From a virus: DNA of 64,000 nucleotides. How positions within the stretch are numbered: the first letter of the stretch is position 1; each line of letters begins with the position of its first letter. The stretch is from positions 43,127-107,126 of the IMG/VR virus record IMGVR_UViG_3300027971_000031, one strand, 5' to 3'. This document shows positions 20,560 to 49,243 of the stretch, piece after piece. Both the position numbers and the translations under genes were made by a program. The notes beneath the pieces were generated by a model. That model saw only the letters and a program-made list of their open reading frames with translations, was not told the origin of the DNA and did not search any database.

Positions 20560-20603
20560 TATTTAATATTATTGTAATAGTTTATTTAAATTTATTTTTT
20601 ATA

Positions 20604-24791: not shown

Positions 24792-24796
24792 ACGTT

Positions 24797-25600: not shown

Positions 25601-25635
25601 ATTTTATATTTATACGGGACTATTTGACGTACCAA

Positions 25636-26253: not shown

Positions 26254-26280
26254 TTTAAATGTTATTATTTTTTATTATGT

Positions 26281-26985: not shown

Positions 26986-26989
26986 TTAA

Positions 26990-27412: not shown

Positions 27413-27413
27413 A

Positions 27414-29284: not shown

Positions 29285-29996
29285 TTTGTAATAAATTATA
29301 TTGTAGTTTATTTCTAATTATGTTTACGGTTGAACTTACTTTATTCATATTAACTTTGTGGTCATTTAATGGGTTTGACTCATTGTATATATATAACACA
29401 TTTGGAATATATTTAAAGTGATTTTCTCCCGACATTTCTAACATTGGAAACATAAATGATAAATCACCTGCAACACTCCAATAATTTCCACTATTATCTT
29501 TTAAATCTTCTTCTTTAATTTTTTTCCATAACCAAGACTTCCATGTTCTCATATGGGACAATGTAAAAGTTTGTTTTCTAATATCTGTAAATTTTTTTGG
29601 AGGATTTGCAAACCCTGGCCGACCATCATGATACTTAAAAGAACCACTTGTCATCCAAACGTTTTCATCTTTATAAACGTCATCTATGAACGATAAAACA
29701 TTTGAATTGGGTAACCAATCGTCACCATCAATCTCAACACATATTTCATTATCAGGAATATTTAAACCACGAATTACTTGGTCGTAATTACCAGGTTGAT
29801 ACATTTTTTCTTTATTCTCAATTAGGATAAATCTTTCATCACCTAATATAGTTTTCTTTATTACATTAACCGTATTATCGGTTGACATGTCATCTGTAAT
29901 ATAACATTTAAAATCTTTAAATCTTTGTGTCATAATTGTTAGCAAAGATTTTTCTACATAATTTTCACAATTATATGTTGTGGTTAATATTATCAT
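29277..29996 (-). CDS. Glycosyltransferase family 2
   Basis: TTYNCENYVEKSL, DDMSTDNT, EIDGDDWL. Confidence 0.85.
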   Translation of the reverse strand: MIILTTTYNCENYVEKSLLTIMTQRFKDFKCYITDDMSTDNTVNVIKKTILGDERFILIENKEKMYQPGNYDQVIRGLNIPDNEICVEIDGDDWLPNSNVLSFIDDVYKDENVWMTSGSFKYHDGRPGFANPPKKFTDIRKQTFTLSHMRTWKSWLWKKIKEEDLKDNSGNYWSVAGDLSFMFPMLEMSGENHFKYIPNVLYIYNESNPLNDHKVNMNKVSSTVNIIRNKLQYNLLQNV

Positions 29997-31153: not shown

Positions 31154-32787
31154 TATGAAAGAATTTTAAGATATTCGTCTTTAATTTGTTGAGCAACACC
31201 CATAGTATAATATTTCTCAATATCTGTTGGTGGTTCGTATTTTTTTTTGGAAAGGATAAATCCACCTTTATCGACTTTATAAATCCAACTTGATTTACCA
31301 CACATCCAACTTTCAATTGTTGTTCTACCTAATTGGATTCCTGCTGTTTCATAAGCCTTTAAGATGAAATCCTCAACCTTCCAAGTTGATGGGAAATGTT
31401 TGACGTGGTCTTCCAACAAAACATTTTCCAAATAATTTCCATTATTTTCTCCAACTAACCAAAGTTCTTTTCCAATCTCTCTGGTATATTCAATTAAATC
31501 TAAGATTGATTCTTTTCTCAAATAATCTATGGTACCAACAAATAACACATAATTTTCTGTCGATGCGTTTTTAGATTTAAATTTCTCATTATCTATAGGA
31601 TTATAAATAATGTTAATCATCTCTTCAGGTATTTCAAAGTTATCAACCATGTGTTCTTTAATCTCAGGACGAATGGCAATGTATTTTTTAATTGTTGGGT
31701 CAACAACTGGGTCTTCTAACGAAATGACCTCAGAGTGAATACTACAAATCTTATCCAATTCAGGATACATATTTAAAATTCGTTCTGCAACAGGTTTGTG
31801 TTGGAAGTGGATTATATCATAATCTACTTCTGCAACACGGTATAATGCATTTGGTGTTGATGGTTTAAATCCTTCAGGAGTATTTGTTCCCCACTGTCCG
31901 TCACCAAGTTTGAAACCTGGCGCATTTTCAAATGAAACACATTTAATCCCAAGTTTTTTTGCCATGTCAGTTACAGGACCACCAATTTGTGAAAGAACCG
32001 TAACACTACAATTTAACTTGATTAAACTTTTTGCCAATTCAAAAACATATAATTCTGAACCTGTAAAATTTCTAAATGAAATACAAGATAATAATACTTT
32101 TAATCTTCTATTTGGGTCAAACGGAATTTTGTTTGGTAAATTATCTTTATATTTTTGAACGAAAAAATTTCTATTATCTTCCCATTGGTCATTGGTTTGA
32201 CCAATAGACTTATGAGTTATTCTGATGTTGGTGATTACACCAACTTTAACACCTTCTAAATGATTTCTAAAACAAAACGCAATATCATAAAAGTGAAACC
32301 CTTCAAACTCTTCATCAAATGTGTGTTTAATTCTTGATTTACTTAACGCGATAAATAAACCATCAACAATAACTGTTTGTCTAATTGACTTACCTAAATC
32401 ATCTGAATATTTTGAAGTCCATTTCTTTCCTTCACTTTCGTGGTTAACAATACCAATCATATCTTTTCTACGATTAGTCTCCCACCATCTACCAGTGTCA
32501 GACATGTTGGTTGTACCTGCAACTCCTAAAATACCAAAATCACTTTTTTCAAAATGAGTTTTAATTTTGTGAAACCAACTTGGGGTATCAAAATAAATGT
32601 CATCATGACAAAGAACAACGATATCTGTCGTTGATTCCTCAAGAATTTCATTATAAACTTGAGACAGTGATTTCTCTCCGTTATTAATCTTTTCAATAAC
32701 TTCTATTTTTTTAAACCCCGAACTTTTCTTTAAGTACTCAATAAATTGAGGGTTATGTTCTCTTGTTGAATATCCTACTGTAATCAT
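31153..32787 (-). CDS. Two-domain glycosyltransferase (GT-A Glyco_tranf_2_5-like + GT-B/GT4-like)
   Basis: N-half SLSQVYNE..VVLCHDD, GVAG, DGLFIA, FHFYD; C-half TGSELYVFELAKSL, IYNPID, LFVGTI, GRTTIESWMCG. Confidence 0.8.
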   Translation of the reverse strand: MITVGYSTREHNPQFIEYLKKSSGFKKIEVIEKINNGEKSLSQVYNEILEESTTDIVVLCHDDIYFDTPSWFHKIKTHFEKSDFGILGVAGTTNMSDTGRWWETNRRKDMIGIVNHESEGKKWTSKYSDDLGKSIRQTVIVDGLFIALSKSRIKHTFDEEFEGFHFYDIAFCFRNHLEGVKVGVITNIRITHKSIGQTNDQWEDNRNFFVQKYKDNLPNKIPFDPNRRLKVLLSCISFRNFTGSELYVFELAKSLIKLNCSVTVLSQIGGPVTDMAKKLGIKCVSFENAPGFKLGDGQWGTNTPEGFKPSTPNALYRVAEVDYDIIHFQHKPVAERILNMYPELDKICSIHSEVISLEDPVVDPTIKKYIAIRPEIKEHMVDNFEIPEEMINIIYNPIDNEKFKSKNASTENYVLFVGTIDYLRKESILDLIEYTREIGKELWLVGENNGNYLENVLLEDHVKHFPSTWKVEDFILKAYETAGIQLGRTTIESWMCGKSSWIYKVDKGGFILSKKKYEPPTDIEKYYTMGVAQQIKDEYLKILS

Positions 32788-32797
32788 TTTTTAATTT

Positions 32798-33418
32798 TTA
32801 AATTCCCGTACTACCAAATCCATTATCGCCTCTATCTTTTTCATTAAGAGTATCGACTTGTTCAAATCTTACGTATTTTCCATTTATTACGGGACACAAT
32901 ACCGCTTGAGCAACTTTCATACCTTTAGGTATCATCACGGTGTGATTATTTGTGTTAAACACAATTACTTGTATTTCACCTGTATATCCTTGGTCAACAG
33001 TCCCTGGTGTGTTAAGAACTGTTAATCCTTGTTTAATGGCTAAACCACTCTTGGGTCTAACTTGAATTTCATAGCCCTCTTGGAAAGAAACTTTAATACC
33101 TGTTGGAACTAAAATTCTACCAAACGGACCAATTGTTAAATCTTGTGTTGAGTGTAAGTCAAATCCTGAATCCGATGGATAGGCATATTTTGGAAAAACG
33201 GCATCATTATTAACCAATTCAACCTCAACAAATTTTGTTTTAGCGTTGATTGCAATCTGTTCGTCTAAATCATCGAAATCAATACCAAAAAGGTCTTCAA
33301 ATTCTTTTTGATTTTCATCATCAGGTTCAATACCTGCTTCAAGTTTAATTTTTTCAAATTGTTTTAAAATTTCTTCGTAAATTTTTGGGTCATAACCCAA
33401 TTGATTCATGTTGTCCAT
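32798..33418 (-). CDS. dut: Trimeric dUTPase with acidic N-terminal extension
   Basis: SGFDL, QVRPKSGLA, NTPGTVDQGYTGEI, AQAV, RGDNGFGSTG. Confidence 0.95.
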   Translation of the reverse strand: MDNMNQLGYDPKIYEEILKQFEKIKLEAGIEPDDENQKEFEDLFGIDFDDLDEQIAINAKTKFVEVELVNNDAVFPKYAYPSDSGFDLHSTQDLTIGPFGRILVPTGIKVSFQEGYEIQVRPKSGLAIKQGLTVLNTPGTVDQGYTGEIQVIVFNTNNHTVMIPKGMKVAQAVLCPVINGKYVRFEQVDTLNEKDRGDNGFGSTGI

Positions 33419-34119
33419 TATTTTAAATCTATTAATTTTTTTATTACATCAATTAACACCGACACATCTTTTTCACAATATTTCACAATACCTTCAATAT
33501 CTTTTTTAACCCAAAAAGCTTCGTGTACTTTATTACCCGTTATCTCCATTGTTTTTGATGATTCAACACCTAAACAAACACACATAAGTTCAAGAGATGC
33601 GATGGAACCATATCCACCATATTGCCAAACTTCTTTTGTATCCAAAGCTTTAATTTCCCATGGTTTTGTATCGTGACCAGGTAAAATCTTTGGCGGCATA
33701 ATTCCATTCATAATCATACGTTTTGCCAACATTGGAATATCAAATCCTTTAACATTATGACCACATAAAAAGAAACCAAGTTCACCAATTCTATATAAAA
33801 GTTTTTGAACTTCTAACAACATTTTTTTCTCATCAATATCGCTAAATGATTGCATTTTAACTTCACCCTTTTCTGTTACGAACGCAACACTGACACAGGC
33901 GATTCTTGCAAATTCAGGAACTAATGCTGAACGATTAACGAACATTTGACCAACCCCGTTGGCTCCGTCTTCAGGAAATCGTTTTTGAAACCAATCAAAA
34001 TAATGTTCGAATTGGAATGAAAGAGCTTCATTGTGTTTAACTAATGAATCCCAATCAGGTTGGACACCAACAGTTTCAATGTCCAAAAATAAAATTTTAG
34101 TTAATGGTATGTTAATCAT
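33418..34119 (-). CDS. DnaQ-like 3'-5' exonuclease (PolB exonuclease-related)
   Basis: LFLDIETV, CGHNVKGFDIP, YCEKDV. Confidence 0.88.
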   Translation of the reverse strand: MINIPLTKILFLDIETVGVQPDWDSLVKHNEALSFQFEHYFDWFQKRFPEDGANGVGQMFVNRSALVPEFARIACVSVAFVTEKGEVKMQSFSDIDEKKMLLEVQKLLYRIGELGFFLCGHNVKGFDIPMLAKRMIMNGIMPPKILPGHDTKPWEIKALDTKEVWQYGGYGSIASLELMCVCLGVESSKTMEITGNKVHEAFWVKKDIEGIVKYCEKDVSVLIDVIKKLIDLK

Positions 34120-34120
34120 A

Positions 34121-35335
34121 TTATTTAATTAAAGATTTGTAATATTCAGCTCTATTTTTTGTAACGTTATTTAAATCATATGTGTCTTTAACAGTTTCAT
34201 ATAATCTTTCACCCATATCGTTTACTAAGTTAGGGTTATCAACCAATTTCTTAATGTATTTTGCCCAATCAGAGTGATTTCTATTTTCATTTACTAACAT
34301 AGCATTTCCATCAACAAAATTACCGTGTTCTAAACAATGTTTTAAATCGATGGTATATGGACCTAAATCAGAAGTAATTAACGCCTTCTTATAAAATCCC
34401 GCTTCAATTACTTTCAATTGTGATTTCATTCGGTTAAACATTGTATTTTTGATTGGTGCCAAAGATACATCAAATTTTGAATAATTTTTTGCGTAAGATG
34501 TAACGGGTTGTGTCCAAACTCTCACGTACGATTCATTGTATTGGTTCGGATAAACTTCTTGAGTATATTTTAACAAATATTTTTTATATTCTTCGGAAAC
34601 TAATGAATGGTTTTGTGTAAATATTTTTTCATATTGAGCCCAAACAGTTTCATGAGGTAAAATGTCTCTTTTTTTATGTTCACCTGTTTGTTGATTGATT
34701 TCAGTCACACTTCCTCTTGTGTCAAATCCACACAAAACAAATTGTAATTTATCTTTAAGATTTGTTATTTTACCAAAAGGTTGGTCTAATAACTGAATAT
34801 CATGTAAGTGTGATGAACCACCTAACCATCCGACTCTTAATCGGTCTGATTCTAATGTTGGTTCTTTAAATTGGGGTTCATTTGGATTAATTGCGTTTGG
34901 AAAAACAACAACATTTTTATTAAACTTTCTAATTTCATTTGCAAAGATTTCTGTTGTTGTTGTAACATATGAGGCAACTTTAAGATTTGCAACAATCTTT
35001 TCATTAATCTTATTAAATTTAATGATATCGTGAATAGGGTGTTCTTTGCCTGGCATCCAATAATCGTCAATGTCCGCAATTGTGATTATACCTAATGAAT
35101 TTAATTTTTGAATTAATTCATGTGCTCTTTCAAAATCAGGACCAATACTTCTGTGAAAAGTAACTATTTGATACTGTTTCCAAAAGTTCATATCATCATA
35201 TGATGGTTCATAATCAATATCCACATGGAAATCATCACCATATAAATTTTGTAAGAATACGTGAGGGTCAACCGACCTAAATTTACCAACTCCTGTTCTA
35301 TCGGATGGTACGACTAAGACTTTAATTTTCGACAT
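34121..35335 (-). CDS. GT-B fold glycosyltransferase
   Basis: GVGKFRSVDPH, DIDDYW, VFPNAI, RVGWLGGSSHLHD, DVSLAPIK..FNRMKSQLKVIEAG. Confidence 0.85.
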   Translation of the reverse strand: MSKIKVLVVPSDRTGVGKFRSVDPHVFLQNLYGDDFHVDIDYEPSYDDMNFWKQYQIVTFHRSIGPDFERAHELIQKLNSLGIITIADIDDYWMPGKEHPIHDIIKFNKINEKIVANLKVASYVTTTTEIFANEIRKFNKNVVVFPNAINPNEPQFKEPTLESDRLRVGWLGGSSHLHDIQLLDQPFGKITNLKDKLQFVLCGFDTRGSVTEINQQTGEHKKRDILPHETVWAQYEKIFTQNHSLVSEEYKKYLLKYTQEVYPNQYNESYVRVWTQPVTSYAKNYSKFDVSLAPIKNTMFNRMKSQLKVIEAGFYKKALITSDLGPYTIDLKHCLEHGNFVDGNAMLVNENRNHSDWAKYIKKLVDNPNLVNDMGERLYETVKDTYDLNNVTKNRAEYYKSLIK

Positions 35336-38064: not shown

Positions 38065-38091
38065 ATAAATACTAGCTCATAAGGTATTTAT
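38065..38091. promoter_or_regulatory. Back-to-back divergent TATTTAT putative late promoters
   Basis: ATAAATA at 38065-71 faces the minus-strand gene starting at 38048; TATTTAT at 38085-91 faces the plus-strand gene at 38101. Confidence 0.65.
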
Positions 38092-38100: not shown

Positions 38101-40971
38101 ATGGCATATCAAAACATTAATCAGTATAATTTTCGTAAATGGGGGATAAAACCAGTCAATGAAATTACCGACATTTGCTTAGCGTCGGACGAGAGAGATT
38201 ATGACCAAGAAGTCGTTTTTTCACCTTTATTAATAGGTGAATTTGATGGAAACAGAATGCCATTTAAGTTTGACTTCAATAGTTCAGGAACAACTTTATG
38301 TCAAGTATCCCCTTGTGTTTTTAGTGCAGATACTATTGTTTCAGAGAATTATTGGAACCCTGACGACATTGACCCCAACTTTTGTCCAATCGTTACAGAA
38401 TTATGTGATATTGGTCTAACGGGAATCGACAACGGACTTGTTCAAAACATGTCAGGTGAAACAATCGAAATTACAACAGGATTATATACAAACATTTCAG
38501 ACAAGTTTAGTAGATACAAATATGACAGGAGAATGAAACTTCATCCTATCACAGGTTTTACCACGACCGAAAATAGATTATGGAATGATAACTCATACAC
38601 TTATGATTTAAATTATCAAAACGTTGGTGGAGATATTGGGTATGTTGCAAACTTACAAGGTGGATTCTTCCAAGGGTTTTACAAAATACCAGGATATGAT
38701 TACCAAGTTTTTCCACAAAGAGTCCCATTAGGTTGGACAGCTGAGTTCATGTTAAAGTATAGATGGACTGGTGATACATCAGGAGGTCTTAACAACAGAT
38801 ATCCCGACAATAAAGGAACATTCTTTTACATGGGGGCAAGAGCCGAGAATAAATTTTACCATTATGCTGACGGTAGTCCAAAACAAGATACGGGATATAC
38901 AAGAGTTACATCAGGTTTAACTTGTATGCACACTTGTGGTTGTGCAAGTAGTGCCAATACATCATCACAATGTCTTCAAGTGTATCAACCATCAGGTGGT
39001 ACCATTACAAATTGTACTTGTGGATGTGCTTGTGATTGTACGACAACCGCTCAATACCCTGAAAAAGACCCACTATATGATGAGGTTTCAAATGCATTGT
39101 CTTTAAGATTAAGTGGCGACACGGGTAGTCCAAGATTGTGTGTTAAGACATATAGAATAACAGGTGGATGTGAACATAGTGGAACTTGTTTAACGGGACT
39201 CACTTATGTAACGGGGACTTCATTAACTGAATGGTGTTCGACAAGAGGTATTTTTGATGATTGTTCGGGAACCACTTATCAAAATGTAGAACATTGGGTT
39301 CAGATTGATGCCGTATTCCAAAGATATGAATGGTTGGATAAATGTGACCTATATGATAAAGGTGGACTTGGTCTGCTTGTTAAAGATGTATATTATGCAA
39401 CAATTGAAGGTAGAAGTGTAACCTTAATTGAACCTCCAATAACCCATGAAGCAAAATATGACCCAGCATCAACTGAAGTTGTGACATTCACTGACATGTG
39501 GACTGAAGAACAAAAGTATAGATTGGGAACACTTAAGTTTTATGTGAATGGAAAATTATTTATGGTCACTGAAAACTTTGAAGAAATTATTCCAAGATTG
39601 TTGAATACTCCAAAAGAAAAACAAATTGGTGTTGGATATAACATTTCAATTGGTGGTGGTACTCAAGGACTTCACGATAACTTAACATTCTCTGGTGGTT
39701 GTCCTGAAACAATTGGTGAAATTGTTTATCAACAAGACCCTGAGTGTTTAACTAATTATGATTTGGAACATACAATTTATTCAGGATTAACAACCCAAAT
39801 TAAATTGGAAGAATATTTTGGTGGTAGTATGATTGGAGAAATCAGTGCATTTAGAATGTATACTGAACCATTAAATGCTTCACAAATTAAACACAACTTT
39901 AGAATATTAAAATTCAAATATAATTTATTAGACCCTGATTGTTTAAATTGTAGAATAACAATACCAGGAAATGATTTAACATATATTTTAATTCCTAATA
40001 ATGATTTATATTATTTGAGTATACCTGCGAATGATTTGTATTACGAACTAATTCAACCAACACCTACACCGACAAATACTCCAACTAATACGACAACGCC
40101 AACTAATACACAAACACCAACGCCAACAATTGGTACTATTACAATATCTCTTGTAGGTACATATTCACCAGGCTCAATCAACGCCAACTATATTGCAAAT
40201 GCAAACACAACATTAGGTGTTGATATTGATATCACATTTGTTAACACTTTAGGTGTGACCAGTGGTTTACCAATTGTTATCAGTGGCTCGGTTACAATAC
40301 AATCGGGACAAACATTTGGAAGTAGTTATTATACTATCGTAGATGATTATAACTTATTAGACGATAATAGTGTTTTCACCTCGGTAAATGTATCAGTTAC
40401 AGGCTCAACATCAAGTACGTTTGTTGTTAATACAATATCAGAGTTTGATGTTACACCAACACCAACTCCTTCAATAACACCTACCAACACTGTAACCCCA
40501 ACTAATACACCCACTAATACCGAAACACCCACTATAACACCAACTGTAACCCCAACTAATACACCTACTAATACTAATACACCAACTGTAACACCAACTG
40601 TAACTTCAACAAACACACCTACTAATACTAATACACCAACGGTAACTCAAACTCCAACAAATACTGAAACGCCAACACCAACCAATACTGAGACACCAAC
40701 AAACACTCCAACTGAAACTCCTACTAATACACCAACTAATACACTAACACCAACTGAAACCCAAATCATTACTCCAACTCCAACAAATACTAATACACCA
40801 ACCATTACCTCAACCCCAACACCGACAACAACAAGTACACCAACTGTGACACCAACTAATACTAAAACTCCAACGCCGACTCCAACTTCAACTGAACCAT
40901 TCTTTATTTTAATTCAAAATGGTGACATATTAACGGCTCAAGATGGTAGTGGAATAGAATATCAACATTAA
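38101..40971 (+). CDS. Large virion protein: Cys-rich LamG/ConA-like region plus Thr/Pro mucin-like tracts
   Basis: [39 protein letters not shown] (LamG-like); IPxNDLxY x3; long TPTNT repeats; C-terminal [13 protein letters not shown]. Confidence 0.7.
40450..40895 (+). repeat. Thr/Pro-rich low-complexity tract (TPTNT/TPTVT), ~150 aa
   Basis: Direct translation; degenerate ACN-CCN-ACN codon repeats. Confidence 0.9.
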
Positions 40972-40988
40972 AACTAATATTTATAGAA

Positions 40989-41495
40989 ATGGCAAACGTA
41001 CAAATAGCAAATTTACCGACATACACAGGAAACACAAATGGTGCTTTTCTTGTTATGAACAATAGTGGGAACACAGAATCATTTAAAGTAACCAAAGAAA
41101 CATTATTTAGCGGGTATTCGCAAAATGCAATATCACCAGTCACAGGAAGTTGGACGTTATCTGCAGGTACAAATACTGTTAGTTTTACAGTTCCTCAGGG
41201 TGAATCATATGTTATGTGGGTGAATGGAAATATTCCAAACGGTATTGTTAATTGGAATGCAACAGTAACACTATCAAACAATAATGTACCTGTAATAGGT
41301 GTACAGTATGGGTGGTATTATCTCGCGGGAAATGCTTTGGAGTTAACATCAATACCAAGTCAGATAGTCGGAACTGCGGGAACTATTAGTACATCAGCAC
41401 CTGCGGGTTCAAATACAAATACCTTTACATTTGGTATAACCAATAATAGTGGCTCGTCTAAAATAATATATTACGGATATATTAAAATAAGTTAA
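40989..41495 (+). CDS. Putative fiber/decoration protein
   Basis: TATTTAT 4 nt upstream; N-terminal VQIANLP motif reminiscent of fiber attachment modules; beta-rich. Confidence 0.6.
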   Translation: MANVQIANLPTYTGNTNGAFLVMNNSGNTESFKVTKETLFSGYSQNAISPVTGSWTLSAGTNTVSFTVPQGESYVMWVNGNIPNGIVNWNATVTLSNNNVPVIGVQYGWYYLAGNALELTSIPSQIVGTAGTISTSAPAGSNTNTFTFGITNNSGSSKIIYYGYIKIS

Positions 41496-41496
41496 A

Positions 41497-42057
41497 ATGG
41501 ATTGTTTTTACTACAGAATAACAAATTATAATAATGTTGAAACTGGATTTTACCGATGGACAGGGTGTACTGACATAATTGGTGTTACTCCTGTTGAACC
41601 ATTACAAACTAGTTATTTTTGCGCTAAAGATATATCTGTTGAAGATTATGCTGCACCACTTGATGTTGTGGATATGGGATTATGTCCGTCAACAACACCC
41701 ACACCAACTGTAACTCCTACACCAACTCAAACATCTGTAACTCCTACACCAACTCAAACATCTGTAACCCCAACTCAAACTCCAACACCAACAGTAACAC
41801 CTGTAATTGTTTATAAATACAATTTAAGAACTGGTGGTTATTATCAAAATGTTTGTGGCTCAACATATTTTGGAAATGCAGCTAACGTTACAATTTATAC
41901 CGAAAAAATATTTGGTGATTTACAAATTGGAGACAATGTTTATGGTGATATTTTATTAACAATCCCACCAATAGGTGCGAATTTCACAATTTCAGATGGC
42001 TCAACATTTATACAAATTGGAGGAACGTTGATTATTAATAAAGGAATATGTGGTTAA
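41497..42057 (+). CDS. Mucin-like modular virion protein (Cys module - T/P linker - Cys module)
   Basis: T/P linker includes a 27 bp tandem repeat at 41708-41768. Confidence 0.7.
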   Translation: MDCFYYRITNYNNVETGFYRWTGCTDIIGVTPVEPLQTSYFCAKDISVEDYAAPLDVVDMGLCPSTTPTPTVTPTPTQTSVTPTPTQTSVTPTQTPTPTVTPVIVYKYNLRTGGYYQNVCGSTYFGNAANVTIYTEKIFGDLQIGDNVYGDILLTIPPIGANFTISDGSTFIQIGGTLIINKGICG

Positions 42058-42102
42058 AATTTTTTTAATTAGTATAAAACAAAAAAATAAGTATTTATTG
42101 AT

Positions 42103-43509
42103 ATGTCATTAGGAGTAAGAATTTTAAGTAATAATTTGAGTGGTCAAACCACAAATGTTGTGTATTTTCCAGATACAGGAGGTACGATTGATTTGGGTAC
42201 GCAAGTATTCCCATTCAATTATCTTTCAAGTTATTATTATGGTAATTATGATTGTTATGTCCCAACATATGGTTATACATACTCATTGAATATTCCAGGT
42301 CCAACACCAAGTCCAACTCCAACAAATACTGAAACTCCAACAAACACACCAGGTTTAAGTCCATCAGCAACAGAAACTGCGACTCAAACACCTACAAATA
42401 CTGCAACTCCAACTGTAACACCTACAAATACCGCAACACCAACTCCTTCAGTTACGGTAGGATTGACTCCAACCGCAACTTCAAGTAATACTCCTACTCC
42501 AACTGAGACTCCAACAAATACTCCAACTAATACTACAACACCAAGTCAAACTCCAAGTAATACTGCAACTTCAACGGTTACGCCTACGGTAACTACAACA
42601 AATACCACAACTCCAACTAATACACCAACTAACACTGTAACACCAAGTAACTCACTTTGTAAGACTTATTTATTGTTTGGTGGTACAATAAATCAGACAA
42701 CATTTGCCGGTATTGATTGTGATGGTTTTGTATATGATTTCTTCCTTGAAGTTTTAGATACTTTAGTTTATTGTGCTCAAACTGTTATTATTGTCGATGG
42801 TGACGGTAGCGCGACTTATTTAGGTGGATGTCCATTACCAACACCGACAGCAACTCCAACAAATACTGCAACTCAAACACCAACTCCTTCAATTACATCA
42901 AGTAATACACCAACACCAACTGTAACTCCAACAAATACTGAGACTCAAACTCAAACGCCAACTAACACTCCAACTAACACGGAGACTCCAACAGAGACAC
43001 CAACTAACACACCTACTAATACCGAAACTTCAACTCAAACTCCAACACCAACTAACACAGAAACTCCAACACAAACTCAAACAAATACACCAAGTGAAAC
43101 TCCAACCAATACTCCTACCAACACAAAAACTCCAACACAAACTCAAACACAATCTCAAACACCGACATTAACTACAACTGAAACACCAACACAGACACCT
43201 ACTAACACAGAAACACCAACGCCAACTACTACTAATACTCCAACACCAACTACTACTCCAACTGTTGGATATTATGTTTATTCTTTTGGTTATAATGTAT
43301 CTTCAATTGTATCCGCTTGTTCGGCAACACCTTCAAACTATTATCTTTCGCCATCATTAAATCCTCTTGACTTGGGTGATTATATCTATACAGATACGTC
43401 TCTTACCACTCCGGCCCCTAATGGTTATTATTCTGACGGCACTGGATGGTATTTAGTGAGTGGAGGTTCAGGTCAAATTACAGGTAATGACCCTAATGGA
43501 TGTCCATAA
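42103..43509 (+). CDS. Mucin-like modular virion protein with two long T/P tracts
   Basis: TATTTAT 4 nt upstream; more than half of the protein is T/P/S/N repeat; C-terminal ...NGYYSDG...DPNGCP module. Confidence 0.75.
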   Translation: MSLGVRILSNNLSGQTTNVVYFPDTGGTIDLGTQVFPFNYLSSYYYGNYDCYVPTYGYTYSLNIPGPTPSPTPTNTETPTNTPGLSPSATETATQTPTNTATPTVTPTNTATPTPSVTVGLTPTATSSNTPTPTETPTNTPTNTTTPSQTPSNTATSTVTPTVTTTNTTTPTNTPTNTVTPSNSLCKTYLLFGGTINQTTFAGIDCDGFVYDFFLEVLDTLVYCAQTVIIVDGDGSATYLGGCPLPTPTATPTNTATQTPTPSITSSNTPTPTVTPTNTETQTQTPTNTPTNTETPTETPTNTPTNTETSTQTPTPTNTETPTQTQTNTPSETPTNTPTNTKTPTQTQTQSQTPTLTTTETPTQTPTNTETPTPTTTNTPTPTTTPTVGYYVYSFGYNVSSIVSACSATPSNYYLSPSLNPLDLGDYIYTDTSLTTPAPNGYYSDGTGWYLVSGGSGQITGNDPNGCP

Positions 43510-43574
43510 ATTAAAAAAAAAATATTTATAACAATATAAAATAACGTAGTATTTATAATAAAATAGAAAATAAG

Positions 43575-44621
43575 ATGGCATGTAGTAAATATACCCTAAC
43601 AAATACTGGTTCAACCATAGTAAATTTCAACTATAGAAGATGTGATGACTCTATGTGGGAGTATCAAGTTGAATTAGAACAAAATCAAACTAAAAACATT
43701 TGGTTAATTAATGGTACATATTCAATTGCACCATCATTTAGTAGTAGTGTTGTTTTAGTTAATAATGGTGCCTACCCAACGGTTCTTCCCACACATACAC
43801 CAACAGGAACTCCAACGTCAACACCTACACAAACGCCAACTCAAACACAAACAGGTACTGCTGCGGTAACACCAACTCCAACTCAAACACAAACAGGTAC
43901 TGCTGCGGTAACACCAACTCCAAGTGTAACACCAACAGAAACCGCGGATGTAACACCAACTCCAACACCAACAGTAACTAATACACCAACAGTAACTAAT
44001 ACACCAACAGTAACTAATACACCAACACATGCTAGATTTACATTTGTAATTACTTCAGGTCTAACATCTAACGTAGCTTGTGATACGGGAGTATCGGGTA
44101 CTATCTACGGTGATGAATCAATCTTTAATGATAACACTCAATTCTATAATTCATTAACAGGACCTGTAAATATTGATATGACAGGATACTATGCAAATTC
44201 AGGAGTTGTTGTTTTATTAACTACTAATGGATTTGAAACGGGTGGTTATACACTTTGTTCGGTTCTTCCAACATTAACCCCAACTCCAACTGTAACTCAA
44301 ACTCCAACTAATACACCAACTGTAACTCAAACTCCAACTAACACATCAACATCAACTCCGACACCAACACCAACAATTGGATATTATACTTATAGTTTAG
44401 GTTATGATGCATCTTCAAATGTAACGGCTTGTTCTGCAATACTTTCAAATTATTATCTTTCTCCTTCTCAAAACCCACTTAGTATCGGTGATACTATTTG
44501 GACTAACACAGCTCTTTCAACACCAGCGTCAAATGGATACTATTCTGATGGTATTGGTTGGTATCAAGTTACTGGCGGAGCAGGATTAATTAGTAACACT
44601 GACCCTAACGGATGTATTTAA
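43575..44621 (+). CDS. Mucin-like modular virion protein
   Basis: Two upstream TATTTAT (43523, 43550); T/P linkers with 42 bp x2 (43836-43919) and 18 bp x3 repeats; C-terminal module paralogous to that of 42103-43509. Confidence 0.75.
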
Positions 44622-44647
44622 AAAAAAACAATACAAATATATTTTAG

Positions 44648-44677
44648 AAAACCCTTCACCTTCGTGGAGGGTTTTTT
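44648..44677 (+). terminator. Rho-independent terminator
   Basis: AAAACCCTTCAC-CTTC-GTGGAGGGTTTTTT. Confidence 0.85.
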
Positions 44678-44703
44678 ATTTTTATATATAAAATATATTA
44701 TAC

Positions 44704-45969
44704 ATGAAAATTTTCGTTCAAATCGCATCTTACAGAGACCCTCAGTTGGTTCCAACAATTAAAGACATGTTGGCAAATGCCAAAAAACCAAATAACCTTG
44801 TTATCGGTATTGCAAGACAATATAGCGATGAAGATGGTTTTGATAATTTAGATGAATATAAAGATGACAAAAGATTTAGAATCTTAAATATTCCTTACCG
44901 AGATGCCAAAGGTGTATGTTGGGCAAGACACCAAGTTCAACAACTTTACAAAGGTGAAACATACACACTACAAATTGATTCTCACATGAGATTTGTTAAG
45001 GATTGGGATGATATCCTTATCAAAATGATAAAGGGGTTACAGAAGGACGGGTATAAGAAGCCTCTACTTACGGGCTACGTTCCTTCTTTTGACCCCGAAA
45101 ATGAACCCGCAGGAAGAGCAACCGATGCTTGGAGAATGGCGTTTGACCGTTTTATTCCTGAAGGTGCTGTGTTCTTCTTACCTGAAACAATTCCAGGTTG
45201 GAAAGAAATGAAGAAACCTGTGACCTCAAGATTTTACTCAGCTCACTTCTGTTTTACATTAGGACAATTCTCAACTGAAGTTCAACACAACCCTGAATAT
45301 TATTTTCACGGAGAAGAAATTTCAATTGCTGCAAGAGCGTACACTTGGGGTTATGATTTATTCCACCCACATATTCCTGTTGTTTTCCACGAGTATACTC
45401 GTAAAGGTAGAACAAAACAATGGGATGATGACACAACTTGGGGACAAAAGAATAGTCACTCTCACTTAACAAATAGAAAATTATTTGGTATGGATGGTGA
45501 AACTCAAGAAGGTCATGACGGTCCTTATGGTTTTGGTCCTGTTAGGACTTTAACCGATTATGAAAAATATGCCGGTATTCTTTTTTCAAAAAGAGCAATT
45601 GACAAACATACTTTAGATAAAAATTATCCACCAAATCCATATAATTTTGAAACAGAACAAGAGTGGAAAGATAGTTTCTGTATGATGTTCAAACATTGTA
45701 TTGATATTGGATATTCTCAAGTTCCTGAAACTGATTATGATTTTTGGGTTGTTGCATTCCATAATGATAAAGAGGATACTTTATTTAGAAAAGACGCAGA
45801 CAAAAATGAAATTGCTGGTTTTATGAGAGACCCTGACAAATATTGTAAAGTATGGAGAGAGTTCCAAACGGATGAAATGCCGTCTCATTGGGTTGTTTGG
45901 CCTCACTCAGAATCTAAAGGATGGTGTGATAGAATTACAGGTAGATTAACCCACAATCACATTAGTTAA
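44704..45969 (+). CDS. GT60-like polypeptide alpha-GlcNAc transferase (Skp1 Gnt1 / Pfam GlcNAc family) with extra C-terminal domain
   Basis: IFVQIASYRDP, AKGVCWAR, YTLQIDSHMRF..DWD (DSH motif), LLTGY, SAHFCF, YFHGEE...AARAYTWGYDLFHP, HEY. Confidence 0.85.
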   Translation: MKIFVQIASYRDPQLVPTIKDMLANAKKPNNLVIGIARQYSDEDGFDNLDEYKDDKRFRILNIPYRDAKGVCWARHQVQQLYKGETYTLQIDSHMRFVKDWDDILIKMIKGLQKDGYKKPLLTGYVPSFDPENEPAGRATDAWRMAFDRFIPEGAVFFLPETIPGWKEMKKPVTSRFYSAHFCFTLGQFSTEVQHNPEYYFHGEEISIAARAYTWGYDLFHPHIPVVFHEYTRKGRTKQWDDDTTWGQKNSHSHLTNRKLFGMDGETQEGHDGPYGFGPVRTLTDYEKYAGILFSKRAIDKHTLDKNYPPNPYNFETEQEWKDSFCMMFKHCIDIGYSQVPETDYDFWVVAFHNDKEDTLFRKDADKNEIAGFMRDPDKYCKVWREFQTDEMPSHWVVWPHSESKGWCDRITGRLTHNHIS

Positions 45970-46703
45970 TGAATATTACAAATATACCTAAGTTTGTCGT
46001 TAATTTAGAAAGACGACCTGACCGATTGGAACATATCCAAAAAGAAATGGATTATATGGGTTGGGATTATGAGTTATTTAAGGCGGTTGATTTAAATAAT
46101 CATGGTGGTTGTACTTTGTCTCATACAGAGATTATTAAAATAGCAAAAGAACGTGGGTATGATTCAGTAATGGTGATTGAAGACGATTGTACTTTTTTAC
46201 CTTATTCAAAAGATTTAATTAATAAAATTGATACAGAATCTGGTGATTTTGAATTTGGTATAATTAATCTTGCACCAACATTAAACAGAAAAGTTAATCG
46301 TAGTGAGGAAAATCCTCTCTTTTTAGACATTACAAATTTACCACCAAAACTAGAACATGAAAGAGGTGTCTTTGCAACAAATATGATAATCTATCATAGT
46401 TCAATTTATGACGATGTTTTAGAATTAGAAAAACCTGAAAAATTAGGGTACTACGCAATTGACGATTATATTTATCAATTTATTTTACCTATCAAACAAA
46501 GTTATTCTCCAATACTACCAATTGCACCTCAAATGAGTAGTTGGTCTGATGTATCACAAGGACAATACAATAATTTTTACACACAAACATATAATTGGAA
46601 TTTATATAGTCCATGTAAAATACCTTCAGGATATTTACATGGGACTTTAGTTCAAGAATTAAAAGACAATAAACAACACAACGAATTTACATATGTCAGT
46701 TAA
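45969..46703 (+). CDS. Glycosyltransferase family 25
   Basis: FVVNLERRPDRL, FKAVD, GCTLSH, VMVIEDD, AIDD. Confidence 0.85.
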   Translation: MNITNIPKFVVNLERRPDRLEHIQKEMDYMGWDYELFKAVDLNNHGGCTLSHTEIIKIAKERGYDSVMVIEDDCTFLPYSKDLINKIDTESGDFEFGIINLAPTLNRKVNRSEENPLFLDITNLPPKLEHERGVFATNMIIYHSSIYDDVLELEKPEKLGYYAIDDYIYQFILPIKQSYSPILPIAPQMSSWSDVSQGQYNNFYTQTYNWNLYSPCKIPSGYLHGTLVQELKDNKQHNEFTYVS

Positions 46704-47574
46704 ATTTATTACATCAATATATAGTGATTTATATGGTACCGAATATGGTGGACGAATTGGTAGAGGAGGACATTATAGATACAGTCTGTTATCACTTTTA
46801 AAAATGACTGATGCCGATTTTTTATGTTATACCTCAGATAGAGAATTACCATCACTAATTACTTTTTTTTATGAAACTCATGGTATATCACCAGATAAAT
46901 TAAAATTTGAAGTCTTTGATATTGCAAATACAAAATTCAAAGATTTAATTAATCAATACAAAGATGTTGAGGCAACTAAAAAGTCTGACCGTTGTATTGA
47001 AGTTCAATATAGTAAATTTCATTGGTGGTGGAATGAAGATAAATCTTATGATTATTATTATTGGATTGATGCAGGATTATCACATTGTGGTTTAATTCCT
47101 GTAAAATATTTGGTTGGTACTCATCCTGAACAAAGATATTATGAATCAACCTTGTTTAACAACGATTTCTTAAAAAATTTAGTTGAGGATACTGGTGATA
47201 AATTTTTAATGATTGGAAAAGAAAATGACCGAAATTATTGGGCGGGAACTTTAAATCCTAAGTGGTATACAAATTGGGAAAGAGGTATTCATATTATTGG
47301 TGGATTGTTTGGTGGTCATAAAGATAAGTGGGACGAAATTGTAACACTATTTGAAAATTATACAGAAAATGTTATTACTGAAGATAAAGGTATACCTCAT
47401 GAAGAAAATGTGATGACGTTGATGTATTATAACCATAAAGAATTAATTGAAAGAAAACATTTTGACATTTGGTGGTGTAGGGATAACGCACCTGCAGGTG
47501 TTACCGATGAAATGTTTGAGGAAAATAAAAGTTTTTTTAGAATTTTAGAAGAATTTAATAGAATATATGAGTAA
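46693..47574 (+). CDS. HtrL/YibB (WlaTC)-like glycosyltransferase
   Basis: FITSIY, QYSKF, YYYWIDAGLSH, IGGLFGG, HEENVMT. Confidence 0.65.
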   Translation: MSVKFITSIYSDLYGTEYGGRIGRGGHYRYSLLSLLKMTDADFLCYTSDRELPSLITFFYETHGISPDKLKFEVFDIANTKFKDLINQYKDVEATKKSDRCIEVQYSKFHWWWNEDKSYDYYYWIDAGLSHCGLIPVKYLVGTHPEQRYYESTLFNNDFLKNLVEDTGDKFLMIGKENDRNYWAGTLNPKWYTNWERGIHIIGGLFGGHKDKWDEIVTLFENYTENVITEDKGIPHEENVMTLMYYNHKELIERKHFDIWWCRDNAPAGVTDEMFEENKSFFRILEEFNRIYE

Positions 47575-49243
47575 TATAACTTTAGTAACAGGAATATGGG
47601 ATATTGGTAGAGGTGAACTATCTGAAGGATGGTCAAGACCTTACCAACATTATTTAGATAAGTTTGAGCAACTTTTAAAGTGCGATGAAAACATGATTAT
47701 TTTTGGAGATGAAGAACTTCAAAAATTTGTCTTTGAACGAAGAAGTCGGGATAACACTCAATTTATTCTTAGACCAATGTCTTGGTTTAGAGAGTCTGAA
47801 TTTTTTGATAAAGTTCAGAAAATTAGGACAAATGAACAATGGAAAAACTTATCGGGATGGTTAAAAGAATCAACTCAAGGTAGATTAGAGAATTATAATC
47901 CGTTAGTAATGTCCAAAGTGTTTTTATTACACGATGCTAAAATTATGGACAGATTCAATTCTGAATATATGTTTTGGATTGATGGTGGATTAACAAATAC
48001 CGTTCACCAAGGTTATTTTACTCACGATAAAGTTCTTAATAATCTATCAAAATATATTTCAAAATTTTCATTTATTTGTTTCCCATACGATGCGGAAAAT
48101 GAAATTCATGGGTTTGAATATAATGCGTTAAATTCTATTGCTGGTTCAAAAGTTAATAAAGTTGCACGAGGTGGATTCTTTGGTGGTCCAAAACACACTA
48201 TTAGTGATATTAATGGAATCTATTATGGATTACTTAAATCAACATTAGATGAGGGATATATGGGTACCGAAGAATCAATCTTCAGTATTATGTGTTATAA
48301 ACATTCTGACATGATTAATTATTTTGAAATTGAATCTAATGGTTTAGTTGGTAAGTTTTTTGAAGATTTAAAGAACGGTGAATTAAAACCTAAATCTGAA
48401 AACATTAATAAAGAAACGAACACATTAGATGTTAATAAAGTTGGTTTATATGTTATCACATTTAACAGTCCAAAACAATTCTCAACTTTAATTGAATCTA
48501 TGAATGCGTACGATAAAGATTATTTATTAAAAACTAAAAAGTTTTTGTTAGATAACTCAAGTGATGAATCAACATTTGATGATTATGCTAAATTGTGTGA
48601 AGAGAATGGTTTTGAACACATTAAAAAAGATAATTTAGGTATTTGTGGTGGTCGTCAGTGGATTGCAGAACATTTCCAAAATGAAACAGATTTAGATTTC
48701 TATTTGTTTTTTGAAGATGACATGTTCTTTTATCCAAAAGAAGGTGATGTGTGTAGAAATGGATTTAATAGATATGTTTCAAATTTATATTCAAAAACAT
48801 TACAAATTGTTAAGAAAGAAAACTTTGATTTTTTAAAACTTAATTATAGTGAATTCTTTGGTGACAATGGTACTCAATGGGCTTGGTACAACGTGCCTCA
48901 AGATGTGAGACAAAAGTATTGGCCAGGTAAAGATAGATTACCTGTTCAAGGTTTAGACCCAAATGCCCCAAGAGCGGTTTATAATTCAGTTAATTCATTT
49001 CAAGGAGTTCCTTATGTTACGGGTGATGTATATTATTGTAATTGGCCTCAAATCGTTACAAGAACAGGAAATCAAAAAATGTTCTTAGATACAACATGGG
49101 GACATCCATTCGAACAAACATGGATGAGTCATATGTATCAGTTAGTCAAGAAAGGTGAGTTATATCCTGGTTTATTACTCATGACACCAACAGAACACGA
49201 TAGATTTGAACATTACGAAAGAAGTTTAAGAAAAGAGTCATAA
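47567..49243 (+). CDS. HtrL-like + GT-A two-domain glycosyltransferase
   Basis: ITLVTGIWDIGR, YNPLVMSKVFLL, FWIDGG, RGGFFGG, GTEESIF; second domain LYVITFN, LLDNS, NLGICGGR, FFEDDM. Confidence 0.75.
   Translation: MSNITLVTGIWDIGRGELSEGWSRPYQHYLDKFEQLLKCDENMIIFGDEELQKFVFERRSRDNTQFILRPMSWFRESEFFDKVQKIRTNEQWKNLSGWLKESTQGRLENYNPLVMSKVFLLHDAKIMDRFNSEYMFWIDGGLTNTVHQGYFTHDKVLNNLSKYISKFSFICFPYDAENEIHGFEYNALNSIAGSKVNKVARGGFFGGPKHTISDINGIYYGLLKSTLDEGYMGTEESIFSIMCYKHSDMINYFEIESNGLVGKFFEDLKNGELKPKSENINKETNTLDVNKVGLYVITFNSPKQFSTLIESMNAYDKDYLLKTKKFLLDNSSDESTFDDYAKLCEENGFEHIKKDNLGICGGRQWIAEHFQNETDLDFYLFFEDDMFFYPKEGDVCRNGFNRYVSNLYSKTLQIVKKENFDFLKLNYSEFFGDNGTQWAWYNVPQDVRQKYWPGKDRLPVQGLDPNAPRAVYNSVNSFQGVPYVTGDVYYCNWPQIVTRTGNQKMFLDTTWGHPFEQTWMSHMYQLVKKGELYPGLLLMTPTEHDRFEHYERSLRKES

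Follow-up and report, generated by a model that had tools for sequence, protein, structure and literature searches.

Genes for proteins with long threonine/proline (T/P) tracts adjoin a GT60-family glycosyltransferase gene in a freshwater jumbo phage, which raises the question of whether the phage attaches sugars to its own proteins. The locus was analysed within a window of 64,000 nucleotides, the whole stretch of DNA considered here. From its sequence, we lean towards the view that the block is a phage-encoded O-glycosylation module acting on the threonines of the tracts.

Layout and transcription of the locus

The preliminary description placed nine open reading frames (ORFs) in this region, five genes and a four-gene glycosyltransferase (GT) operon, and all nine are present where it put them.

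38084..38091, + strand: RTATTTAT motif, putative late-promoter element
38101..40971, + strand: TP956; conserved ~640-aa N-terminal domain, tract (647-685), ~90-aa bead, tract (776-938), short C-terminal peptide
40989..41495, + strand: p168; small, cluster-conserved, no T/P tract
41497..42057, + strand: TP186; two small Cys-containing domains linked by a 51-aa T/P tract, start abutting the p168 stop
42103..43509, + strand: TP468; beads-on-a-string, with a four-Cys bead in the middle, another bead at the C terminus, and a pair of long (Thr-X)n tracts
43575..44621, + strand: TP348; T/P tracts of differing length linking three small beta beads
44645..44678, + strand: intrinsic terminator; 15-pair stem plus T run
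44704..45969, + strand: GT60-family glycosyltransferase (PF11397, phrog_24687)
45969..46703, + strand: GT25-family glycosyltransferase (PF01755), start overlapping the GT60 stop
46693..47574, + strand: Htr293; distant HtrL-like paralogue (hhalign), overlapping both neighbours
47567..49243, + strand: HtrGTA558; fusion of an HtrL_YibB domain (3-252) with another conserved domain (~290-558)
40977, 42091, 43522, 43549, 49248, 57283 and 59503, + strand: further RTATTTAT copies
53898, 16309 and 12085, - strand: further RTATTTAT copies
17069..35335, - strand: glycan toolkit island, tied to the GT operon by inference only

The GT operon sits between the T/P genes and the DNA polymerase gene (DNApol), and the gene order is repeated in 69 of 71 related contigs. 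The strong intrinsic terminator between TP348 and the GT60 gene was absent from the preliminary description. The operon is a separate transcription unit behind this terminator and does not belong to the late unit, and the T/P genes and the GT operon also differ in their upstream motifs. The RTATTTAT motif is found 5-46 nt 5' of TP956, p168, TP468, TP348, p125, the tail sheath gene and an adaptor-like gene. For 16 of its 25 copies a start codon follows within 50 nt, compared with an expectation of 0.6 and with 0-6 for control AT-rich 8-mers. The motif is missing upstream of TP186 and the GT operon. RNA-library contigs over TP348 were seen to end at 44606-44627 in three runs, a weak hint.

The island encodes five GT2 enzymes (one fused to a GT4), two of GT1 type, a GT11 and a GT10, together with three DegT aminotransferases (one a fragment), an SDR epimerase/dehydratase and a UDP-sugar dehydrogenase. 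A PglD-like acetyltransferase and a CmcI-type O-methyltransferase are also encoded, and genes for PhoH, a dUTPase and an exonuclease are interspersed.

Glycosyltransferases and tract proteins

Profile searches bore out the GT60 and GT25 identities proposed earlier. The GT60 protein matched PF11397 at 6.2e-66 (223.7 bits, cut-off 21) and phrog_24687 at 1.5e-166, and the DxH motif (within the previously noted QIDSHMRF) and the GEE motif are followed by a downstream His; D99, H101, E210, E211 and H235 are invariant in the alignment. The enzyme has no transmembrane (TM) segment and carries a conserved C-terminal extension of ~120 aa. To our knowledge, no prokaryotic GT60 member has been biochemically characterised. 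GT25 matched PF01755 at 1.5e-12 (48.3 bits, cut-off 24) and is swapped for other tailoring genes in related contigs. The 293-aa Htr293 had no match in Pfam or NCBIfam; its earlier description as HtrL-like was upheld by hhalign against the HtrL half of the 558-aa family (96.4%, E 1.1e-9, 195 columns), which makes it a distant HtrL paralogue. The proposed HtrL+GT-A fusion stood in part. Residues 3-252 of HtrGTA558 matched PF09612 (HtrL_YibB, 4.8e-19), but the putative GT-A half matched no Pfam or PDB profile; its sole marks are an EDD that is invariant and a segment resembling DNS[ST]D. In L175 and L177 each half is encoded by its own gene. HtrGTA558 is the most constant partner of GT60, being found in 63 of 80 distant viral and 18 of 80 bacterial GT60 loci.

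Besides the two TP956 tracts listed above, T/P tracts cover residues 57-107 of TP186, 54-189 and 241-395 of TP468, and 64-156 and 225-277 of TP348, the exact lengths being uncertain in a metagenomic contig because short-read assemblers jump between T/P tracts. Over all tracts there are 289 Thr, 131 Pro and 35 Ser residues; the long TPTNT/TPTQT-type tracts with hundreds of threonines described earlier are thus confirmed in four proteins, and the fifth ORF, p168, is agreed to have none. The tracts are strict (Thr-X)n repeats in which as much as 89% of the positions in one phase are Thr (in TP956 776-938, 72 of 81), and their DNA consists of degenerate tandem repeats of 12-66 bp. They are predicted to be disordered; in the AF2 model of TP348 the tracts have a pLDDT of 32-48 and the beads 75-90. 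A conserved Cys pair brackets each TP348 bead in the family alignment, and the bead fold had no significant match in the PDB. The C-terminal bead of TP468 is also found in TP348, and the middle bead of TP468 is seen again in a fifth T/P protein encoded on the contig. The gene of this fifth protein lies four genes 5' of terminase in a same-strand run toward the portal and MCP genes. The N-terminal domain of TP956 belongs to a large viral family (631-1379 aa) with swapped C-terminal modules (LamG_3, DUF285); the AF2 model of residues 1-640 has a pLDDT of 27. p168 had no match in Pfam, PHROG or NCBIfam, and everything returned by an Atlas search was a viral hypothetical, a C1q-like similarity (0.84) being a weak lead.

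Linkage of GT60 and T/P genes across genomes

Eighty distant viral GT60 loci (47-71% identity) were sampled. A T/P ORF was the immediate upstream same-strand neighbour in 25/68 and the downstream neighbour in 3/77 of these loci, which are not independent of one another in phylogeny (Fisher 3e-7). The upstream neighbours are spread over 9 of 22 GT60 clusters, and 27 of 87 T/P ORFs lie in the -2 kb bin. At bacterial GT60 loci, the T/P neighbour was upstream in 7/68 and downstream in 0/73. The T/P neighbours of distant GT60 genes fall into ~19 families unrelated to one another, among which RCC1, BNR/fn3 and GH-like modules occur; therefore it is the tract that recurs, not a protein family. When viral contigs were picked solely by T/P-coding DNA, GT60 was found in 17/46, compared with 0/28 of the control contigs, which were smaller (p 8e-5). 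GT60 and T/P-repeat genes, whose co-occurrence and synteny the preliminary description had suggested checking, are thus linked in related and distant genomes alike, and the pattern supports the view that the pairing is functional. Its recurrence in many unrelated phages and some bacteria suggests that phages which sugar-coat their own proteins may be widespread.

Two Xanthomonas jumbo phages, the cultured XacN1 and Xoo-sp13, have a GT60 gene (45-49% identity) in one operon with genes resembling those of Htr293 and HtrGTA558, although at E<=1e-20 their DNA polymerases show no relation to that of the present phage. TPTxT-tract ORFs are numerous in both, and some of them adjoin baseplate and tail genes. 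They differ from the present phage in having a carbamoyltransferase gene after GT60 and T/P genes that are dispersed rather than adjacent. XacN1 virions have at least two PAS-positive bands, not tied to named proteins, and this staining was credited to phage GTs: the authors proposed in 2018 that the products of ORFS334 (a GT60 homologue) and ORF328 make virion glycoproteins, without remarking on a T/P link (PMC5852040). The earlier statement that no mucin-plus-GT60 system had been described in a tailed phage holds for the literature searched, but virion glycosylation by a GT60 homologue had been proposed.

The tracts could instead be plain unglycosylated spacers, with the GTs acting on other phage proteins (capsid, tail) and the adjacency reflecting clustered fast-evolving accessory genes. 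This is unlikely. In its favour, seven complete T/P-tract phage genomes had no match to GT60, GT2 or HtrL_YibB and the same tract composition, and therefore the tracts do not need the GT60 system; 43/68 distant viral GT60 loci have no T/P ORF directly upstream; and mycobacteriophage glycans are placed on capsid and tail-tube C-termini in the account given in PMC12619734. However, strand- and side-specific adjacency over so many unrelated T/P families is hard to obtain from loose clustering, and the strong bias of Thr over Ser fits the acceptor preference of characterised GT60 enzymes.

A role of the GT operon, and of the sugar island, in remodelling the host envelope during infection is also fairly unlikely. 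LPS/LOS core or another surface glycan would then be assembled on the cytoplasmic side and exported by host machinery, for instance as a bar to superinfection or to keep progeny from adhering to debris, and the T/P genes would be mere neighbouring variable structural genes. GT25 and HtrL_YibB are by name LPS-associated families, and jumbo-phage GT clusters have been read elsewhere as surface-polysaccharide modification systems (PMC7824862), but the 64-kb window contains no flippase, polymerase, ligase, lipid-carrier transferase or membrane protein; the island proteins are all soluble and include no Wzx, Wzy or Und-P transferase. The neighbours of GT60 in 12 acidobacterial loci include a GT9 heptosyltransferase and HldE (LPS-core genes), although these loci are of a single lineage and divergently transcribed. 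Similarly, XacN1 has a GT9 gene close to its GT60 cluster, yet its virions bear glycoproteins. Envelope remodelling would agree with the T/P genes being set apart from the GT operon by a terminator, but leaves both the same-strand upstream enrichment of unrelated T/P ORFs and the GT60 excess in T/P-selected contigs unexplained.

The position of the operon beside DNApol raises a third alternative, hypermodification of phage DNA with glycans, which is highly improbable. Synteny with DNApol and p125 is lost in most distant GT60 loci (DNApol in 68/80), and the T/P association would go unexplained. Phage GTs are known to decorate DNA with several sugars (PMC13326640), but no GT60, GT25 or HtrL appeared in the one DNA-glycosylation paper searched. 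The dUTPase/dCTP-deaminase-like and ThyA-family genes in the present lineage, XacN1 and Xoo-sp13 would suit such a role, but the latter are a ThyA-family match only, with no hydroxymethylase shown.

Proposed O-glycosylation module and known systems

In the O-glycosylation module favoured here, the phage would make modular proteins late in infection, their disordered (Thr-X)n tracts carrying either small beta beads of the disulfide type or a large N-terminal domain. The soluble cytoplasmic GT60, putatively a retaining enzyme of the GT-A type whose metal site is DxH, would start the glycan on tract threonines with one sugar, most likely HexNAc donated by a UDP-sugar. The HtrL-fusion enzyme and strain-variable tailoring enzymes would extend it (GT25 and Htr293 in the present phage; GT10, GT2, GT7, GT34 and methyltransferases in relatives), and the 17-35 kb island may supply further GTs and unusual nucleotide sugars. 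The glycosylated products are probably located on the virion as fibres, whiskers or decorations, where a coat of sugars would make the linkers stiffer, shield them and present a surface that differs from strain to strain. We infer the acceptor threonines, the sugar, the virion location and the biological role. The Thr-specific tracts (Thr:Ser 289:35) count toward the tract as GT60 acceptor, while the RTATTTAT motif shared with the tail sheath and adaptor genes, the solubility of all components and the lack of lipid-carrier machinery count toward the module. The earlier term 'mucin-type' serves only as an analogy here: the reactions would take place in the cytoplasm, as no component was found to have a TM segment or signal peptide.

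Disordered P/T/S linkers between the small modules (binding or catalytic) of bacterial and fungal cellulases are O-glycosylated, and the glycans are thought to extend the linkers and protect them from proteases. Ser/Thr-rich disordered regions are similarly glycosylated in streptococci (PMC12041528). In these cases the sugars are added outside the cytoplasm by cellular enzymes (membrane GT-C or others), whereas a virus-encoded soluble GT60 would act here. In chlorovirus and mimivirus, virus GTs and nucleotide-sugar enzymes glycosylate virion proteins independently of host secretory machinery, according to work cited in PMC5852040. These are giant viruses of eukaryotes with the major capsid protein or fibrils as acceptors, and no GT60/T-P tract pairing is known from them. 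In the Che8-type mycobacteriophages (Freeman et al. 2023, as related in PMC12619734), phage GTs likewise act in the cytoplasm on structural proteins of the phage itself. The GTs and their acceptors, the capsid and tail-tube C-termini named above, differ from the candidates proposed here.

The closest enzymes are the eukaryotic GT60 polypeptide alpha-GlcNAc transferases, TcOGNT-2 of Trypanosoma cruzi, acting on mucins, and Gnt1/Gnt2 of Dictyostelium, which share with the phage enzyme PF11397, the same DxH variant of DxD and a Thr/Pro-rich candidate acceptor. T. cruzi mucins also combine a conserved first sugar with strain-variable elaboration. The eukaryotic GT60 enzymes are Golgi membrane proteins, or modify one Skp1 hydroxyproline, whereas the phage enzyme is soluble and has the extra C-terminal domain. 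Their acceptors contain contiguous Thr runs, unlike the strict (Thr-X)n candidate of the phage; a T. cruzi GT60 enzyme adds sugar to Thr in KPPTTTTTTTTKPP (PMC3769586).

Genomic setting and the T/P-tract proteins

The window forms the final 64 kb of a 107-kb IMG/VR contig, for which CheckV estimated 36% completeness, values that fit a piece of a jumbo phage of about 300 kb; close relative contigs reach 321 kb and carry terminal repeats. The GC content of the window is about 31%, and the DNA runs containing the sequence are freshwater or lake metagenomes. Since genes for a portal, a major head protein, a tail sheath and a head-tail adaptor-like protein lie in the window together with those for a helicase and a family-B DNA polymerase, the phage is a myovirus in which structural and replication genes are interleaved. 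It has no close cultured relative, because tblastn with the polymerase recovered no enzymes but remote ones from Salinibacter and Nostoc phages (23–26% identity); by megablast, the region matched no cultured phage.

All nine ORFs that the preliminary description had placed in this region, five upstream genes and a four-gene glycosyltransferase (GT) operon, were recovered at their positions. Four of the five upstream proteins (TP956, TP186, TP468 and TP348) contain Thr/Pro-rich (Thr-X)n stretches, here called T/P tracts, which total 289 Thr, 131 Pro and 35 Ser. The fifth, p168, is tract-free, and an NCBIfam search added nothing for it. Thr makes up 42% and Pro 19% of the 690 tract residues, as in the Pro/Thr/Ser-rich tandem-repeat acceptors of a mucin-type system. 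The repeats are strict dipeptides, with Thr at 72 of 81 positions of one phase in TP956 (residues 776–938) and at 67 of 77 in TP468 (residues 241–395). Within T-X-T triplets, X is Pro in 44%, followed by Asn, Gln, Val and Glu. The underlying DNA consists of degenerate tandem repeats of 12–66 bp. An 89-aa Val/Gly-repeat ORF opposite the TP956 tract (40347–40616, minus strand) was rejected as a repeat shadow and not a gene. ARAGORN detected 27 tRNA genes at positions 14794–22646 of the whole parent contig (G000:C1), including Thr(TGT), Pro(TGG), Asn(GTT) and Gln(TTG), and CCA accounts for 77% of Pro codons within the tracts versus 49% in other genes.

Outside the tracts, the globular parts of these proteins are conserved. 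TP348 and its relatives contain three small domains with a conserved Cys pair around each; AlphaFold modelled those of TP348 confidently as beta beads (pLDDT 75–90) linked by disordered tracts (pLDDT 32–48). The TP348 model had no significant fold match in the PDB by Foldseek, and a CBM-like beta sandwich, suggested by best matches at E 0.3–1, was set aside as evidence. The N-terminal domain of TP956, about 640 aa, belongs to a large viral family (>1,800 matches), and an AF2 model of residues 1–640 reached a pLDDT of 27, so that no fold could be assigned to it. Members of this family are 631–1379 aa long and have a modular C-terminal end, to which a LamG_3 or DUF285 'surface protein' module is added in some; receptor-binding and decoration proteins typically have this architecture. 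A fifth T/P protein of beads-on-a-string build (733 aa, 359 of them tract residues) is encoded at G000:C1 34881–37082 (L486:7882–10083), about 6–8 kb before the window start. It has a four-Cys bead in common with TP468, and its gene stands four genes ahead of the one for the large terminase.

Enzymes and transcription signals of the GT operon

The GT operon consists of four genes:

44704–45969, plus strand, GT60
45969–46703, plus strand, GT25
46693–47574, plus strand, Htr293, distant HtrL paralogue
47567–49243, plus strand, HtrGTA558, HtrL_YibB domain with a putative GT-A half

The GT60 and GT25 assignments, originally read from the sequence alone, were borne out by profile searches. GT60 matched PF11397 at 223.7 bits (cut-off 21; E 6.2e-66) and phrog_24687 at 1.5e-166, and scored 182.8 bits in a search of the phage's own genome. 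GT25 matched PF01755 at 48.3 bits against a cut-off of 24, in two stretches of which the best covers residues 6–44 only. The GT60 family is grouped with GT27, whose members are the mucin-initiating ppGalNAc transferases. The DxH motif (within QIDSHMRF), the acidic pair of GEE and a downstream His are invariant in 15 diverse members of the family; DxH in place of DxD as metal-binding motif has been described for GT27/GT60 (PMC7185993). Sequence searches found no solved-structure homologue of GT60, and NCBIfam added nothing for GT60, GT25, Htr293 or p125, another ORF of the window.

The remaining two assignments held in part. HtrGTA558, described as an HtrL plus GT-A fusion, contains an HtrL_YibB domain (PF09612, 69.4 bits against 24.1); its score of 76.4 bits against the NCBIfam YibB equivalog TIGR02192 is far under the threshold of 264.9, so the protein has the domain without being a YibB equivalent. 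The C-terminal half forms another conserved domain, marked by an invariant EDD and encoded by a gene of its own in two bacteria. Its reading as GT-A is plausible and unproven, since no Pfam or PDB relative of this half was detectable; the HtrGTA558 profile found nothing significant among PDB sequences (GT2 Dpm1, E 0.59). Htr293, named as an HtrL-like GT, is a distant HtrL paralogue (hhalign 96.4%), related at the profile level only.

A separate island of glycan genes at 17–35 kb encodes five GT2 domains, GT4/GT1, GT11, GT10, three DegT aminotransferases, an SDR epimerase/dehydratase, a PglD-like acetyltransferase, a CmcI-type O-methyltransferase and a UDP-sugar dehydrogenase; neither a flippase nor a polymerase nor a lipid-carrier transferase was seen. 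At 23542–24791, a 217-aa ORF, which could have arisen by truncation or rearrangement, matches a DegT aminotransferase over the N-terminal quarter alone; the PglD-like acetyltransferase gene that follows overlaps it and is opposite in strand to the remainder of the island.

The motif RTATTTAT occurs 5–46 nt upstream of the starts of TP956, p168, TP468, TP348, p125, the tail sheath gene and the adaptor-like gene. Sixteen of its 25 copies precede a start codon by less than 50 nt, at distances of 2–46 nt (0.6 expected; 0–6 for AT-rich control 8-mers), and it is non-random in placement only, with no enrichment in overall frequency (25 vs 22).

RTATTTAT before starts, plus strand: 1403, 2863, 7465, 8610, 38084, 40977, 42091, 43549, 49248, 57283, 59503
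RTATTTAT before starts, minus strand: 12085, 16309, 38065, 53898

In this phage lineage the motif may serve as a late-promoter element, and its placement supports the view that T/P and structural genes are co-regulated. RTATTTAT is absent from the GT operon, in front of which lies a strong intrinsic terminator (44645–44678); therefore the enzymes and their proposed substrates are separate transcription units. A sigma-70 promoter scan remained at background level (68 found, 59 expected). Contigs identical to parts of TP468, TP348, GT60/GT25, Htr293 and HtrGTA558 were present in four lake RNA libraries; they are compatible with expression and do not prove it, since such libraries may contain DNA and contigs carry no information on levels. 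Public-run contigs also join different T/P tracts within 40056–44375, skipping 0.8–3.8 kb. Short-read assemblies thus mis-join T/P repeats, which makes tract lengths and even gene boundaries uncertain in metagenomic contigs.

Association of GT60 with T/P tracts in other genomes

The GT60 family comprises 877 clusters (50% identity, E<=1e-30), many of them viral. In the close clade (GT60 83–99% identical), a T/P gene lies directly upstream of GT60 in 69 of 71 loci, a figure that tells little because these loci are kin. A distant set was therefore defined by 80 viral loci with GT60 47–71% identical to that of the window. The proposed linkage persisted there: in 25 of 68 loci the gene immediately upstream on the same strand is a T/P ORF, and these loci represent 9 of 22 GT60 clusters (70% identity); the remaining 43 lack such a neighbour directly upstream. 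An initiating transferase of the GT27/GT60 clade is accordingly encoded with a candidate acceptor in both sets of loci, at the frequencies just given. Tracts are found in the downstream neighbour in only 3 of 77 (Fisher p = 3e-7, for phylogenetically non-independent loci), and of the 87 T/P ORFs of the distant viral loci, 27 lie in the first 2-kb bin on the upstream side of GT60. Bacterial genomes have a weaker version of the same asymmetry (7/68 upstream vs 0/73 downstream). With tracts masked, about 19 families can be distinguished among the upstream ORFs; these match neither one another nor the proteins of the window, and their modules include RCC1, BNR/fn3 or GH-like domains. The recurring neighbour of GT60 is the tract itself. 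Co-occurrence was also evident in the reverse direction: among viral contigs picked by (TPTx)4-coding DNA, most of them fragments, 17 of 46 encode GT60, compared with 0 of 28 picked by an unrelated coding pattern (p = 8e-5; the control contigs are smaller).

That the GTs glycosylate phage DNA is very improbable. A ThyA-family gene is present in the lineage, with a match that fits thymidylate synthase or hydroxymethylase alike. Against this, synteny of the polymerase with GT60 is not conserved, being kept in only 12 of the 80 distant viral loci (15 for p125), and GT60, GT25 and HtrL are not mentioned in the one DNA-glycosylation paper searched.

The most constant partner of GT60 is HtrGTA558 (63 of 80 viral loci). 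The interval between them, 45969–47574 in the window, is occupied in related phages by a swapped tailoring cassette of 1.5–7 kb with genes for GT10, GT2-like, GT7-like (GT7C), GT34 and RXYLT1-like enzymes, several methyltransferases and DegT. With its conserved ends and hypervariable middle, the locus resembles an O-antigen locus.

L014:5080–9026, tailoring cassette
L029:11266–15654, tailoring cassette
L072:11266–16872, tailoring cassette
L081:4019–6272, tailoring cassette

Remodelling of the host envelope by the GTs is an unlikely alternative explanation, to which two observations lend themselves: GT25 and HtrL are LPS-associated names, and a single acidobacterial lineage, accounting for 12 of the 80 bacterial loci (e.g. 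Tunturiibacter L189:7253–11257), has GT60 in an LPS-core setting, next to HldE and a GT9 heptosyltransferase. In Neisseriaceae bacterium TC5R-5 (L173:8723–12976), GT60 is instead found within a T6SS cluster, right after a fimbrial-domain protein.

Seven complete phage genomes bearing T/P tracts of the same composition had no match to GT60, GT2 or HtrL_YibB, and therefore tracts can serve without a GT60 system; tract composition does not differ between GT60-positive and GT60-negative phages. These phages, like the 43 distant loci with no T/P neighbour directly upstream, count against glycosylation of the tracts by GT60 and for the explanation that the tracts are plain linkers and the GTs modify other phage proteins, which is considered improbable beside the positional association of GT60 with tracts.

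In some phages (L154:3–4628, L146:266–4366 and L165:2–8135), GT60 is directly preceded by a giant ORF consisting almost wholly of T/P tract, in one case with 1167 tract residues among 1541 aa; such proteins are far more mucin-like than the T/P proteins of the window. In Sphingomonas and other Pseudomonadota (L216, L218, L221 and L227, at about 6000–10000), the protein encoded immediately upstream of GT60 has 1220–1350 aa, two T/P tracts and a C-terminal Rv2525c-like glycoside-hydrolase-like domain.

Proposed O-glycosylation and cultured phages

The likeliest mechanism, held at somewhat better than even confidence, is that dedicated modular phage proteins are O-glycosylated in the cytoplasm at the threonines of their tracts. 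GT60 would act as initiator on tract Thr, HtrGTA558 and the strain-variable enzyme set would extend the glycan, and the products would probably be displayed on the virion, a location suggested for the T/P proteins by gene context and by the motif in common with the sheath and adaptor genes. The candidate activity of GT60 would be retaining transfer of alpha-GlcNAc from UDP-GlcNAc to Thr or Hyp of a polypeptide; what the genomes show is its association with Thr tracts. A Trypanosoma cruzi GT60 enzyme transfers alpha-GlcNAc onto Thr of the peptide KPPTTTTTTTTKPP and requires Mn2+ (PMC3769586). The tracts, in which Thr outnumbers Ser eight-fold, fit a preference of this kind.

The label 'mucin-type' in the preliminary description did not survive. 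The eukaryotic system operates in the secretory pathway (Golgi) with membrane-anchored enzymes, whereas no transmembrane segment or signal peptide was predicted in any of the GTs or T/P proteins. Modification would thus take place in the cytoplasm, and 'mucin-type' is an analogy and not membership. A broader proposal is put forward tentatively: GT60 and (Thr-X)n genes may form an ancient, mobile, cytoplasmic prokaryotic/viral 'mucin-like' O-glycosylation cassette that decorates virion appendages of many aquatic jumbo phages (in some bacteria, surface, T6SS or fimbrial-type proteins) with strain-variable glycans, and whose eukaryotic counterparts, possibly derived from it, would be the GT60/GT27 mucin-initiating enzymes.

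The proposed system would be a variant of already known phage-encoded virion glycosylation, of which we know of few cases; nor, to our knowledge, has any prokaryotic GT60 been characterized. If correct, it means that a large, environmentally abundant set of jumbo phages makes dedicated Thr-tract proteins and coats them with GT60-initiated, strain-variable glycans. This would give a function to two common unexplained features of metagenomic phages, PT-rich 'linker' ORFs and eukaryote-like GT clusters, would provide the first candidate substrates for prokaryotic GT60 enzymes, and would bear on phage-host recognition, resistance to grazing and proteases, and immune recognition of therapeutic phages. 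No tie of PF11397/GT60 or T/P tracts to phage glycosylation appeared in the literature searched; for the aquatic 'moraphages', four core GT orthogroups were described without the T/P-GT60 link (PMC12619734).

Among cultured phages, GT60 occurs at 43–49% identity in Xanthomonas phages XacN1 and Xoo-sp13 and in two Stenotrophomonas phages. The polymerases of XacN1 and Xoo-sp13 do not match that of the window at E<=1e-20, so the GT module is common to otherwise distant lineages. TPTxTPTxT-coding DNA gave 29 and 39 matches in the two Xanthomonas phage genomes and none with the reversed control. The XacN1 tracts lie in a six-gene paralogous family (ORF232–237) and in large ORFs beside baseplate wedge genes and the tail-sheath completion gene. 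Purified XacN1 virions yielded at least two Schiff-positive (PAS) glycoprotein bands, the proteins behind which were not named, and their authors proposed that the phage GTs ORF328 and ORF334 make the virion glycoproteins (PMC5852040); ORF334 is the GT60 homologue, as is gp304 in Xoo-sp13. In XacN1 and Xoo-sp13, GT60 is followed by a carbamoyltransferase, an Htr293-like and an HtrGTA558-like gene. The 765-aa carbamoyltransferase is inserted directly 3' of GT60 (L001/L002, 10390–12706), which suggests that the glycans of these two phages contain carbamoylated sugars.
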